Assembly (NCBI GenBank): GCA_012965955.1
Contig: DTRK01000002.1
Span: 1-46,400, forward strand
Reading direction: 5' to 3'
DNA: 46,400 nucleotides
Source: Flavobacteriales bacterium
GTDB taxonomy: Bacteria; Bacteroidota; Bacteroidia; NORP154
Shown here piece by piece: positions 23,835 to 35,144 of the stretch (position 1 is its first letter; every line of letters begins with the position of its first letter). The position numbers were made by a program, and so were the translations under genes. The notes under the pieces were generated by a model. That model had not been told where the DNA came from. It saw only the letters and a program-made list of their open reading frames with translations, and ran no database searches.

Positions 23835-24051
23835 CGGCATACATTTAAATGCAAGGCAATTTTTGTCAACAATAATCATCAAACAAGGAATCTGCCTGGG
23901 ACTCACACTGGTGCTGATTAAAATAGTGTAGAGATGACCCCTTGTTGCATCCGTCGGTTAGAGCCAGGCTGAGGATGAAGAGATGCTTAATACTTGCTTG
24001 CAAGGTTGCTTTGTCGTTTCACAAGCTTGATTAACGTGATGGCAAGAGTAT

Positions 24052-24084
24052 AAAAAACCCCGCTCCGTTTAGGGAAAGGGGTTT
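24052..24084 (-). terminator. Rho-independent terminator of the ribosomal superoperon (after rplQ)
   Basis: The minus strand reads AAACCCCTTTCCCTAAACGGAGCGGGGTTTTTT, a GC stem followed by a T6 run. It begins 28 nt after the rplQ stop. Confidence 0.75.
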
Positions 24085-24112
24085 CAATATTATCAGAGAA
24101 ATATAATAGCCT

Positions 24113-25066
24113 TTAGTCCTTCTTTTCTTCTTCCCCGGTTGACTCTTCTTCTGTAGCTTCTCCCTCTTTAGTTTCCTCTTCGACAGCTTCTCCCTCTTTA
24201 GTTTCCTCTTCGACAGCTTCTCCCTCTTTAGTTTCCTCTTCGACAGTTTCCTCTTCGACAGTTTCCTCTTCGACAGCTTCCTCTTCGACAGTTTCCTCTT
24301 CGACAGCTTCCTCTTCGACAGCTTCCTTGCTGGCCTCTTCTTCAGGCTCTTCTTCGGTAGTCGTTTCCTCAGCATCTGGCTCTTCCTCTTTCGTAGCGGC
24401 TTCAGAGGACACATCTGCTTCTTCTGGGGTATCAGTTGAATTTTCTTCCGTAGCCTCCACCTTTGTTGCCGCCTCAGCTGATTCCTCTGCAGGCTTGTCT
24501 TGTTTCACCTCTTCTACCTCCTCAATGATCTCGGCATCTTCTACAGATGGCTTGTCTTCTGCTTTCGCGTCCTCCTTCGCTGGCGCTTCGGCGGACAGGC
24601 CGGTTTTAGCCGGATCAGTAGCTCCGCTTCTTTTTTTGCTTCTTCCTCGACGTGTTCTAGGCTTCTTCTCAGCGGTACCAGCAGCTTTTGGCTCAGCTAG
24701 CATTGCCTCGTTAAAGTCTACCAATTCGATAAGACACATCTCGGCGTTATCCCCAAGTCGGTTACCAGTTTTGAGAATACGTGTATACCCGCCAGGACGA
24801 TCCGCAATCTTAGGTGCCACGTCTCTAAAAAGCTCAGTTACCGCATATTTGTCTCTGAGGTATCTGAACACCATTCTTCTCGAATGTGTGGTATCATCTT
24901 TAGCCCTTGTCAGCAATGGCTCAATAAAAGTCCTCAAAGCCTTAGCTTTAGCAACAGTAGTGTTGATTCGCTTATGCTTAAGGAGTGAAGATGCCATATT
25001 GGCCAACATCGCCTTCCTGTGAGGCGCTTTTCTGCTAAGGTGATTGAATTTCTTCCCGTGTCTCAT
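24113..25066 (-). CDS. rplQ: 50S ribosomal protein L17 with ~200-aa acidic C-terminal extension
   Basis: The L17 core [21 protein letters not shown]...[25 protein letters not shown] spans residues 1 to ~118. An E-rich low-complexity tail follows. Confidence 0.95.
24156..24326. repeat. In-frame tandem repeat array inside rplQ: 3 x 30 nt, then ~5.4 x 15 nt
   Basis: The unit gcttctccctctttagtttcctcttcgaca occurs at 24156, 24186 and 24216. The unit g(t/c)ttcctcttcgaca occurs at 24246, 24261, 24276, 24291 and 24306. Together they encode ([10 protein letters not shown])n and (EEE[A/T]V)n. Confidence 0.95.
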
Positions 25067-25102: not shown

Positions 25103-26092
25103 TTATCGCTCTATCTTGTACTTTGAGATATCCATACCAAAAGACAATCCTTTGGCATCAACAAGATCTTCCAATTCAGAAAGCGACTTCTTGCCAAAGT
25201 TTCTGAACTTCAATAAATCATTCTTATCAAACGAAACAAGGTCCCCCAATGTGTCTATCACAGCAGCCTTTAAGCAATTCAACGCCCTTACAGAAAGATC
25301 CAGGTCAGCTAATTTGGTCATCAACAGCTGTCGCATATGAAGTGATGATTCATCAAATTCCTCAGTAACCGACTTTTCTTCCACGTCCAGGGTGATTCTT
25401 TCGTCAGAGAATAGCATGAAGTGGTGGATTAGAATCTTAGCTGCTTCAGTCAATGCATCTTTTGGCTGAATTGATCCATCAGTGCTAATTTCAAAGATCA
25501 ACTTCTCATAGTCAGTCTTTTGCTCTACCCTGTAGTTCTCTACAGAATACTTCACATTCTTGATAGGTGTGTAGATTGAGTCAATTGGAATCAGTCCCAG
25601 GTTTCCGTTAAGCGGCTTATTATCTTCGGCTGGAACATATCCTCTTCCCTTATCAATGGATATTTCCATGTTTAGCTTTACAGACTTTTCCATGTTGCAG
25701 ATAACCAATTCTGGGTTCAGTATCTGGAATCCGGAGATAAACTTGCCTAGATCACCAGCTTTGAATTCTTCCTGGCCGGATACTGAAACAGTTACCTTTT
25801 CATTGTCAGTATCTTCAATTTGCTGCTTGAAGCGCACTTGCTTCAAGTTCAAGACGATTTCTGTAACGTCTTGAACAACGCCTTTGATAGTAGAGAATTC
25901 ATGATCAATACCTTCAAGTTTCACAGAAGTAATCGCAAAGCCCTCTAACGATGCCAGGAGAATCCTTCTCAATGCATTTCCTATTGTAATACCATAACCA
26001 GGTTCCAGAGGCCGAAACTCAAATGTTCCAACAGTTTCGGACGAATCCAACATTATTACTTTGTCTGGTTTTTGAAAAGCTAAAATTGCCAT
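25103..26092 (-). CDS. rpoA: DNA-directed RNA polymerase alpha subunit
   Basis: 329 aa, with GNALRRILL and a C-terminal-domain helix-hairpin-helix ([10 protein letters not shown]). It sits between rpsD and rplQ. Confidence 0.97.
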
Positions 26093-26154: not shown

Positions 26155-26760
26155 TTATTTAGAGTATAATTCCACAATTAATTGCTCCTTGATCGGCTCA
26201 GGAATTTCGTCTCTCTCAGGTACATTTAGAAACACTCCCGATAAGCTGGTCTGATCCCATTCTAACCATGAGTAAACGCTTGGGTTTTCTGCTAACGAAG
26301 CGTTAATTGACTCGTTAGATTTAGACTTCTCCCTAACTGCAATACGGTCACCTGCCTTCAGTTGGTAAGATGAGATATTGCAGACTTTGCCATTCACCGT
26401 AATGTGTTTGTGTCCTACCAATTGCCGAGCGCCAGCCCGGGTAGGGGATAGGCCCATTCTAAACACGGTATTGTCTAATCGAGATTCACACAATTGGAGC
26501 AGCAACACACCTGTAATGCCTCTTTTCCTTGAAGCTTTATCGAACAGATTAGCGAACTGACGCTCAAGAATACCGTAGGTATACTTTGCTTTTTGCTTCT
26601 CCATAAGTTGAATAGCGTATTCAGACTTCTTGCCCCTTCTCCTGTTGTTCCCGTGATGTCCCGGTGGATAAGACTTCTTCTCAAGAAATTTATCAGCTCC
26701 GTAGATCGGCTCTCCGAATTTTCTTGCAATTTTTGATTTTGGACCTATGTACTTTGCCAT
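26155..26760 (-). CDS. rpsD: 30S ribosomal protein S4
   Basis: [17 protein letters not shown] plus an S4 RNA-binding domain. The operon position fits. Confidence 0.97.
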
Positions 26761-28017: not shown

Positions 28018-28812
28018 TTAATGCACTAATTCCCGTTCATTTTTTTTTAGCTCCTCTTCGCAAAAATCGAATGAAGACAAAATATCAGCTCCGTTTGGTG
28101 TTATTGCCACCGTATGCTCATAATGGGCGGAAAGCGAACTATCGGTAGTTGTAATTGTCCAACCATCAGCTAAGCCCTGAACAGTGAATACACCTGCGTT
28201 TATCATTGGTTCAATGGCTATCACCATTCCCTCTTTTAGTTTTGCTCCAGTGCCTTGCTTTCCATAGTTAGGAACTTCTGGCTTTTCATGTAGATTCCTG
28301 CCCACTCCGTGCCCTACCAGATCACGTACAACAGAAAACCCATTAGTTTCAGCGTGTTTTTGTACTGCATATCCAATATCTCCAATCCTGTTTCCAATAA
28401 GTGCAACCCCGATCCCCTTGTAAAGGCATTCTTTGGTAATCTTCATGAGCTCAAGTGCTTCAGTGGACATATCGCCTATTGGGTACGTATATGCAGAATC
28501 ACCATAAAATCCATTCATCAACACGCCACAATCAACGGAAACGAGATCGCCTTCGCCTAAAACCCTGTCTCCAGGCATTCCGTGTACTACTTCCTCATTA
28601 ACTGAGATGCAAAGTGTCGACGGGTAGCCATTGTAGCCTTTAAAACCAGGTTTTCCACCATTGTCTAGAATAAACTCCTCTGCCATCTTATCTATCTCCT
28701 TAGTTGTAATGCCTGCCTTCATAATTTTTGCTATCTCACCATGCGTTTTGGCAACCAGCATATTGCTCTTTCTGAGCAGCTCAATTTCATCGTATGTCTT
28801 ATAGTAGATCAT
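28018..28812 (-). CDS. map: Type I methionine aminopeptidase
   Basis: Metal-ligand contexts VSVDCG, GDSAYTY, VGHGVG, AIEPM and EHTV. Confidence 0.95.
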
Positions 28813-30182: not shown

Positions 30183-30893
30183 TTACGCTTTCTCCTCTCC
30201 AGCTACTTTTTCTTTTTCTTTTTCTTTTTCTTCAACTGGAGTTTCATCCTTTGCCTTATCGTCTGTTGATTCATTTTTAGCCCCTCCCGCCTTTTTTTCT
30301 GCCTCTGGTTCCCGTTCCTGGCTTTCCTCTTCCTTGCTTTCCTCCTTTTCTTCACCTTTTTCCCCTGCCGCTTCATTAGCTGTCGGAGCTGCTACTCTGG
30401 GCTTAGTCTTTTTACGCGGCTTATTTACCTTTTTTCCTCTTCTACCTGGAAGCTCTATGGCGGTTCCTCCTGCACTTTCAATGGCTTTTTTCGCCGTTTC
30501 GGAAAACGCGTTGGCAGTAATTTCCAATTTCGCCTTTAGCTCACCTCTTCCGAGGATCTTTACTAAATCGTTCTTAGAAACCAGGCCGTTTTCGTGCAGC
30601 ACTTCCTTGTCAACCTTCTTGACTTTCTTATTCTCAGCAAGAGCCTGCAGCGTATCAAGATTGATACCTTTATAGGCTATTCTATTTATGTTCTTGAAGC
30701 CAAACTTTGGCACCCTGGTTTGAAGAGGCTGCTGTCCGCCTTCAAAGCCAGACTTCCGAGAATATCCAGAGCGAGACTGCTGGCCTTTATGTCCTCTCCC
30801 AGCAGTACCGCCTTTAGTGGAACCCTGGCCTCTTCCAAGTCTTTGGTTTTTCTTAATTGATCCTTTGGCCGGTTTTAAATTGCTTAAATCCAT
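30183..30893 (-). CDS. rplO: 50S ribosomal protein L15 with ~88-aa K/E-rich C-terminal extension
   Basis: The L15 core is [12 protein letters not shown]...[12 protein letters not shown]...AGGTAIEL. A charged tail follows to residue 236. Confidence 0.95.
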
Positions 30894-34847: not shown

Positions 34848-35144
34848 TTATTCAGTCTCTACAGCACCCCCTGCTTTCTTTGTTTCTTCATTCGGGGCGA
34901 TTTCCTCAGTATTTTTAGCATTTACCTGAGCTGTCTGGGAAGTTGTCTCTGCATCTTCCCCTGCTCTTTTGGTCAATTCAGTTGATAAACGAGCAATTGT
35001 TTTTCGGGCATACTTCAATTTCAAGGGGTTTTCCAGACTGGAAACCACATGGTTCATCTTCAACTTTTGATATGCGTTTTTCTCGTTATCAATCATCTCT
35101 TGTATTTCTACTGAGGACATCTCTCTGATTACAGCTGCTTTCAT
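34848..35144 (-). CDS. rpmC: 50S ribosomal protein L29 with ~38-aa C-terminal extension
   Basis: The L29 core is MKAAVIREMSSVEIQEMIDNEK...KTIARLSTELTKR. The tail GEDAETTSQTAQVNAKNTEEIAPNEETKKAGGAVETE follows. Confidence 0.93.
   Translation of the reverse strand: MKAAVIREMSSVEIQEMIDNEKNAYQKLKMNHVVSSLENPLKLKYARKTIARLSTELTKRAGEDAETTSQTAQVNAKNTEEIAPNEETKKAGGAVETE

Follow-up and report, generated by a model that had tools for sequence, protein, structure and literature searches.

A long acidic repeat tail on ribosomal protein bL17 of a Flavobacteriales bacterium, and low-complexity extensions on further proteins of the same ribosome

The rplQ gene in a 46,400-nucleotide stretch of DNA from an uncultured deep-sea Flavobacteriales bacterium (assembly GCA_012965955.1, contig DTRK01000002.1, positions 1 to 46,400 of the forward strand; hereafter, the window) encodes a ribosomal protein bL17 (L17) of 317 amino acids (aa). 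An earlier note on this DNA, made from the letters alone, had proposed that the L17 core ends near residue 118 and is followed by an acidic tail of about 200 residues, and the open reading frame (ORF), the Pfam match and the composition all agreed with this proposal. The tail comprised 199 residues, beginning at residue 119 (position 24712), and carried a net charge of -54. Comparative evidence indicated that it is a genuine in-frame C-terminal extension of bL17, and structure prediction suggested that it is disordered. Moreover, at least eight further ribosomal proteins of the same genome carried low-complexity extensions. The tail is probably a disordered polyanionic surface brush that is selected for its bulk charge and length, and the main rival to this reading is that it is a neutral by-product of repeat slippage. 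The rplQ gene itself is ordinary. In a limited literature search, no description was found of a very long acidic repeat tail on L17 or of its short motifs, nor of a ribosome-wide set of acidic tails in Bacteroidota, and these are the features that appear to be new here.

The bL17 tail and its reading frame

The rplQ product matched the Pfam family Ribosomal_L17 (PF01196) over residues 20-116 with E = 6e-37 and 126.9 bits against a cut-off of 27, and the match spanned profile positions 1-97 of 97. This was the sole Pfam match at E up to 0.1, and no L12 or 60S-acidic (P1/P2) domain was detected. The best PDB sequence matches were 7JIL_N and 9I5T_Q, both of which are bL17, and comparison of the L17 model with these two chains by Foldseek gave a probability of 1.00 and template modelling (TM) scores, normalized to the target, of 0.82-0.84. 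The core had a net charge of +15. The tail consisted, in order, of a short linker, a basic patch and a low-complexity acidic stretch, and the features of the gene were as follows.

24113..25066, minus strand: rplQ coding sequence, bL17 with C-terminal extension, 317 aa (ORF list; Pfam PF01196)
24713..25066, minus strand: conserved bL17 core, residues 1-118 (Pfam, AlphaFold, Foldseek, substitution rates)
24626..24667, minus strand: basic patch, residues 134-147 (alignment A1, relatives, PDB sequences)
24515..24544, minus strand: conserved ten-residue motif, residues 175-184, here called the VEDAEI motif (pattern counts, alignment A1)
24147..24327, minus strand: tandem array (Tandem Repeats Finder, exact-unit positions, relatives)
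24116..24133, minus strand: C-terminal tip EEEKKD, residues 312-317 (alignment A1, same-genus genomes)
24113-24115, minus strand: stop codon TAA of rplQ (ORF list)
24052..24085, minus strand: intrinsic-terminator-like hairpin and U run (RNA fold, 27 nucleotides (nt) past the rplQ stop)

The basic patch started with KKPRTRRG (residues 134-141), which conforms to a class-wide K-K-x-R-[TS]-R-R-G motif expected 10-20 residues past the core. The last 171 residues of the protein were 39% Glu, 14% Ala, 11% Thr and 8% Val, and most of what was not Glu consisted of Ala, Thr, Val and Lys. All 69 Glu residues of the tail were encoded by GAA or GAG codons, so the tail does not correspond to polyglutamate added after translation in the manner of RimK. 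Tandem Repeats Finder reported a 30-nt period of 5.2 copies with 93% match at 24155-24310, together with a 15-nt period of 10.5 copies at 24170-24327. Eleven exact 15-nt units were present, namely five of GCTGTCGAAGAGGAA, three of ACTGTCGAAGAGGAA and three of ACTAAAGAGGGAGAA. On the coding strand, six consecutive 15-nt units encoding [A/T]VEEE came first and the 30-nt units followed. The previous description of this array was correct as to the presence of both unit lengths, but its claim of three identical 30-nt units did not stand, because only two copies were exact (24241-24212 and 24211-24182) and the third matched them at 27 of 30 bases.

The gene was read as a single frame of 317 codons with no stop or frame change between the core and the tip. 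The uninterrupted frame had been offered in the earlier note as proof that the tail is not an artefact of annotation or read-through. The frame is indeed intact, but as evidence it is weak in this DNA, since the GAA-rich sequence leaves two other frames across the repeats open too, and conservation is needed to settle the matter. Two by-products of this stop-poor, GAA/TTC-rich DNA overlap rplQ, namely a Ser-rich ORF of 231 aa at 24327-25022 on the plus strand and an ORF of 127 aa with KRKLS repeats at 24031-24414 on the minus strand. Both were rejected as genes, and such ORFs could be miscalled as genes in automated annotation.

Conservation did validate the frame. Of 41 related genomes, 37 yielded an L17, as did 391 of the 401 genomes that were sampled from the phylum as a whole, and its open frame was nearly always longer than 160 aa, mostly 160-250 aa and up to 331 aa across the phylum. 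In all 30 Bacteroidia relatives from which the protein was extracted, the core ran in frame into the basic motif and then into a low-complexity tail, and the same layout was present in independent assemblies, in complete genomes and in the sequences of solved ribosomes. The tail architecture and the C-terminal EEEKKD were thus conserved in relatives. A frameshift hiding a true stop near codon 125 was not found, since relatives share both the frame and the tip, and programmed read-through or frameshifting was ruled out by the single frame here and in relatives. Accordingly, the conclusion that the tail is no annotation artefact holds, on the strength of in-frame architecture in dozens of independent genomes, and long rplQ genes of this kind should be regarded as real and not trimmed. 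RNA evidence was limited to one run of uncertain kind, in which a single 176-nt contig at depth 2 crossed the core-tail junction, and this is too weak to use.

An AlphaFold run based on a 24-sequence alignment gave predicted local distance difference test (pLDDT) values of 84-95 for the core (residues 11-110). From residue 125 onward, pLDDT was below 60 throughout and no secondary structure was predicted, and values fell below 50 for most of residues 146-317. The L17 tail is therefore predicted to be disordered.

The position of the gene was conventional. It is the final gene of an rpsD-rpoA-rplQ cluster, as is expected of the alpha operon, with rpsD (26155-26760) and rpoA (25103-26092) upstream on the same strand, their identities being read from the translations alone. 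The terminator-like hairpin that had been noted downstream of the stop was present, starting 27 nt after the TAA, with the stem GAAACCCC/GGGGUUUU, an inner UUCC/GGAG pairing and further U residues after it; an 81-nt stretch containing it folded at -19.1 kcal/mol. A simple terminator scan had missed this hairpin because its stem contains an internal bulge.

Repeat expansion, constraint and degree of extension

Near-identical proteins from metagenomes captured the array at different stages. P0004, which is 91% identical to the window protein, contained single copies of the repeat units and represents the unexpanded form. P0002 had three AVEEE units and one KEGEA unit, P0003 and P0001 had two KEGEA units, and the window L17 had three KEGEA units and six [A/T]VEEE units. 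Since P0004 is unexpanded and P0001, P0002 and P0003 are intermediate, the expansion appears to be recent and lineage-specific. The last third of the tail evidently arose very recently, when 15-nt and 30-nt units multiplied through replication slippage, as had been supposed from the perfection of the repeats.

The length polymorphism that had been anticipated between close relatives was also seen, and it was in frame. Near-identical metagenome L17 sequences measured 273, 278, 286 and approximately 287 aa, against 317 aa in the window. A deletion of 15 nt, a 24-nt insertion at 24587 and, within the array, what looked like a skip of 120 nt were seen in unitigs from other vent and seawater runs. 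The insertion falls outside the repeats of the tail, keeps the frame, occurred in X5 seawater and X8 vent contigs, and matches extra residues of P0002 and P0004. All indels seen (15, 24, 30 and 120 nt) were multiples of three. Part of the length variation could be assembly collapse, as k=31 unitigs cannot resolve the array. The window itself derives from a short-read metagenome bin in which such unitigs break or collapse in the array, so its assembled copy number is unconfirmed, and no Nanopore or PacBio run carrying the rplQ locus was found among public reads. The array is a likely strain-level length marker.

The ratio of nonsynonymous to synonymous substitution rates (dN/dS) was 0-0.02 in the L17 core. 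In the tail, close variants gave 0.6-0.7, and comparisons at genus level, for which dS was saturated and the alignment uncertain, gave 0.14-0.24. Three islands stood out from this turnover. In the basic patch, R137 and R139 were invariant and R140 and G141 were at least 90% conserved in alignment A1, and the basic motif also occurred in the bL17 sequences of Flavobacterium johnsoniae and Porphyromonas gingivalis. For the VEDAEI motif (residues 175-184), composition-preserving shuffles of 241 distinct Bacteroidia L17 tails predicted 0.08 occurrences, yet 46 of these tails contained it. At the terminus, 11 of 127 tails had [DE][DE]KK, whereas shuffles gave 0.23, K315 was invariant in A1, and the same-genus genomes G001 and G002 kept the EEEKKD tip despite dS >1.4. 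There are 104 single-base changes in the tail that would give a stop. These comparisons indicate that constraint is relaxed on the sequence of the tail and retained on its frame, its acidic composition and three islands, namely the basic patch, residues 175-184 and the EEKK[D/E] tip.

The earlier note had also called a long tail on this protein unusual. As regards the extension itself, this was not upheld, since an extension was present in all 30 Bacteroidia relatives, in most of the roughly 390 phylum genomes sampled and in solved Actinobacteria ribosomes, and longer tails exist. The suggested comparison of rplQ length across related genomes gave variable lengths, and all relatives were extended. 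What does stand out is the degree, together with the tails on at least eight more ribosomal proteins. Among 127 distinct Bacteroidota L17 tails, the median length past residue 118 was 56 aa and the median net charge was +1; nine tails reached 150 aa and ten were at or below a net charge of -25, so that a tail of 199 aa and -54 lies in the extreme few per cent of this sample. Extended bL17 is therefore already known from deposited sequences and structures, and by the measure of these sequences it is the degree here that is exceptional. Viewed in isolation, the L17 tail is an extreme instance of something that the whole class has and that has been largely ignored.

Comparable tails were found in three other lineages. 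The L17 of L040, an uncultured Flavobacteriales bacterium, had a tail of 255 aa with a net charge of -75; that of L007, from the same family as the window, had 216 aa and -51; and that of L009/G021, from an unrelated family, had 171 aa and -39 and ended in EEEKKD. These tails resemble that of the window in layout and composition, and some share the terminal EEKK[D/E]. However, their repeat units and sequences differ from those of the window, whose array is younger and composed of exact units, and the long acidic tails of these lineages are accordingly independent expansions. A different arrangement was observed in L008 (G037; protein P0113), where a 157-aa L17 tail ended in an apparent folded helical domain. 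Precomputed Pfam hits of P0113 were PF14520 and PF14229, which would represent a domain fused to L17 and not low complexity.

Extensions across the ribosome and their interpretation

All ORFs of the genome (G000) were scanned for 60-residue windows with at least 40% Asp+Glu. Twenty ORFs were returned, of which eight were ribosomal proteins, corresponding to a roughly 40-fold ribosomal enrichment (Fisher p ~1e-9, with approximate gene counts of ~54 ribosomal proteins among ~2,800 genes). At least eight ribosomal proteins, listed below, carry low-complexity extensions like that of bL17, nearly all of them acidic. In E. coli, bL31 is a protein of about 70 aa.

Contig C42: bL31, 353 aa, core residues 1-79 (Pfam)
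Contig C150: bS6 (rpsF), at least 340 aa, running off the contig end (Pfam)
Contig C293: bS16 (rpsP), at least 300 aa, running off the contig end (Pfam)
Contig C27: bL19, 274 aa, acidic N-terminal extension of ~155 aa, (AEEEKAEEP)n, start codon tentative (Pfam)
Contig C267: uL10, 253 aa (Pfam)
Contig C59: bL25, 255 aa (Pfam)
Window, 30183-30893, minus strand: uL15 (rplO), 236 aa (Pfam Ribosomal_L27A, residues 77-145)
Window, 30183..30452, minus strand: charged low-complexity tail of uL15, ~88 aa (Pfam boundary, composition)
Window, 34848-35144, minus strand: uL29 (rpmC), 98 aa (identity from translation)
Window, 34848..34964, minus strand: mildly acidic tail of uL29, ~38 aa (translation)

The eight extensions totalled at least 1,328 residues per ribosome, with a net charge of about -329. 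The uL15 tail consisted of a basic patch and then an E/K-rich stretch, and was charged but near neutral (net -1). By eye, the other tailed proteins had different repeat units, although the genome as a whole was not searched specifically for the 15-nt unit. The proteome as a whole was only mildly acidic (long ORFs: D+E 11.8%, E 5.6%), and a salt-in halophile proteome was therefore rejected as the cause of the acidity. S16, L31 and S6 had median lengths of 309, 249 and 189 aa in the window's own family, compared with 191, 101 and 129 aa for Bacteroidia outside it. Across genomes, L17 tail length correlated significantly with the lengths of S16, L31 and S6 (rho 0.43-0.58 overall), but this was largely driven by the own family and was rejected as proof of a common driver. 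Partial versions of the coordinated expansion were shown by G021, G031, G037 and G040.

The assembly broke inside the acidic repeat arrays of rpsP (end of C293) and rpsF (end of C150), which shows that such repeats fragment the metagenome-assembled genome. Acidic low-complexity segments were also observed in non-ribosomal ORFs on G000 contigs C151, C281 and C42 and in the window, all identified by N-terminal sequence only. They included a GyrA-like ORF with an acidic C-terminal tail, an FtsZ-like ORF (761 aa) containing a long linker, a DnaX-like ORF and, in the window at ~28100-28680 on the minus strand, a GrpE-like ORF with an acidic N-terminus.

We consider it probable that the L17 tail is a disordered polyanionic surface brush. 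It would project from the solvent face of the 50S subunit, given the structural background on where bL17 lies, and would be one bristle of a ribosome-wide polyanionic brush that works by entropic and electrostatic effects. Selection would act on bulk properties (length, charge and disorder) and not on sequence, and slippage would supply the length variation on which it acts. Such a brush would raise the negative surface charge and the excluded volume of the particle, and the effect could be less unspecific sticking or aggregation, or the buffering of cations.

Several points weigh against this reading. In close pairs, the dN/dS of the tail is near neutral. Tail length differs twofold within the genus (94, 141 and 199 aa), a spread hardly to be expected if the function were tightly tuned. 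The repeat copy number of the assembled rplQ array is unconfirmed by the short-read data. When the own family is set aside, the correlation of L17 tail length with the lengths of S16, L31 and S6 is weak (rho 0.18-0.39), and the coordinated expansion consequently counts as a single clade-level event. Slippage may have been seeded by low-complexity tails that already existed, and this could account for part of the enrichment in ribosomal proteins. Furthermore, the tail could be trimmed after translation, so that mature ribosomes would not carry it in full. Finally, the basic patch as an ordered anchor on ribosomal RNA was unsupported, since it is unmodelled in both solved Bacteroidota ribosomes.

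The main rival, which we regard as possible though distinctly less probable, holds that the tail is tolerated at a solvent-exposed terminus and that its size and charge have no function. Slippage of GAA-rich repeats would inflate and deflate it, and selection would remove only those variants that harm the core or the ribosome. The near-neutral dN/dS between close variants, the wide spread of lengths both within the genus and among near-identical sequences, and the weak correlation of tail lengths outside the family are all as this explanation would have them, and the perfect repeats imply an expansion too recent to have been polished. It accounts less well for a frame that remains open to a conserved terminal motif despite the many one-step routes to a stop and dS >1.4, for indels that are exclusively in frame, and for conserved islands far above shuffled expectation. 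Moreover, such tails are strongly enriched in ribosomal proteins relative to the rest of the proteome, and across lineages they stay acidic even as their sequence changes.

The conserved islands could also be read as functional sites in their own right. Acidic tails of stalk proteins or of SSB are analogues for an arrangement in which a flexible acidic spacer presents the VEDAEI motif and the EEKKD tip and recruits a partner near the tunnel exit. The presence of two islands in an otherwise variable tail, both far more frequent than in shuffles, the invariance of K315 and the predicted disorder are consistent with such a tether. Nevertheless, it appears improbable as the main explanation, as there is no known or predicted partner, most Bacteroidia L17 proteins lack the motifs (Flavobacterium tails end in TEASE), the recent expansions add spacer only, and the motifs are not obviously shared by the genome's other tailed ribosomal proteins. 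A further reading takes the tail to be a built-in chaperone or autoinhibitor that folds back on the basic patch and core of free L17, so that the protein stays soluble and does not bind non-cognate nucleic acids before it is incorporated. The strongly positive core and patch set against the charge of the tail would suit this role, and uL15, also encoded in the window, has a basic-then-acidic layout as well. We think it very unlikely, given that 40-60 near-neutral residues suffice in most Bacteroidia, that it offers no reason for expansion to 200 residues, and that the bL19 extension is N-terminal and has no basic patch. That the tail arose by frameshift, by mis-assembly or by read-through of a true stop near codon 125 is scarcely credible, for although the bin is built from short reads, its unitigs are interrupted by the array and the proteins from alternative assemblies are shorter, the uncertainty is confined to repeat copy number and does not extend to the existence of a stop-free tail whose in-frame architecture and C-terminal motif recur in independent assemblies, complete genomes, solved-ribosome sequences and relatives.

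Returning to the brush, a broader proposal can be put forward only tentatively, and we rate it as doubtful in its full form. A family of uncultured marine and vent Bacteroidia may have remodelled the surface of its ribosome, with at least nine proteins bearing long disordered and mostly polyanionic extensions that form an adaptive brush, to which the L17 tail contributes docking motifs near the tunnel exit. If an adaptive acidic brush of this kind were real, it would give a bacterium a means, not described before, of adjusting ribosome solubility, spacing, cation economy or condensate behaviour, with replication slippage as a fast tuning knob. Acidic tails amounting to more than 1,000 residues per ribosome would be a natural system in which to test the effects of bulk charge and of a disordered brush, and they open questions of aggregation, crowding, Mg2+ or polyamine balance and hibernation, as well as of selection that acts on composition and length alone.

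Comparison with known systems

Two solved Bacteroidota ribosomes offered the closest comparison. The bL17 sequence of F. johnsoniae (7JIL_N) has 163 aa, of which 125 residues were modelled, and that of P. gingivalis (9I5T_Q) has 160 aa, of which 123 were modelled. Since the built chains stop at 125 and 123 residues, the Bacteroidota bL17 extension, including its basic patch, is evidently not ordered enough to model. Over the structural alignment, the cores of both chains were 77-78% identical to that of the window L17. Their extensions start at the same point as the window tail, carry the same basic K-K-x-[RS]-R-R-G motif and are likewise unmodelled. However, they are approximately 40 residues long and near neutral, against 199 residues and -54 in the window, and the tandem array, the motif at residues 175-184 and the EEKKD motif set the window tail apart from them. 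The F. johnsoniae ribosome paper treats the extension of bS6 and not that of bL17.

Actinobacteria bL17 sequences of 164-199 aa (Mycobacterium 5O60_O, 199, and 5V7Q_N, 180; Cutibacterium acnes 8CRX_m/8CVM_m, 187; Streptomyces 9QT5_N, 164) resemble the window L17 in being extended past a core of about 118 aa, and their built models comprise 116-120 residues. This likeness was judged on lengths, and the extension is of separate origin from that in Bacteroidia.

Negative, flexible C-terminal tails are also known in two other settings. RimK adds polyglutamate to bS6 post-translationally, and only a few residues are added. Stalk proteins have acidic C-termini at the factor-binding site, which end in a defined factor-binding motif. 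In the 50S subunit, bL17 occupies the lower back, close to the outer ring that surrounds the tunnel exit. The window L17 tail shares charge and flexibility with the RimK and stalk tails; unlike them, it is genome-encoded, is 200 residues long and would lie on the opposite face of the 50S subunit from the stalk.

Finally, the uL4 of C. acnes has a 100-aa solvent-exposed C-terminal extension for which no density was seen (PMC10085706). It resembles the tails described here in being solvent-exposed, invisible to cryo-electron microscopy and lineage-specific. Known disordered extensions of this kind have usually been described singly, whereas in the present genome at least nine proteins of one ribosome carry them, nearly all acidic.

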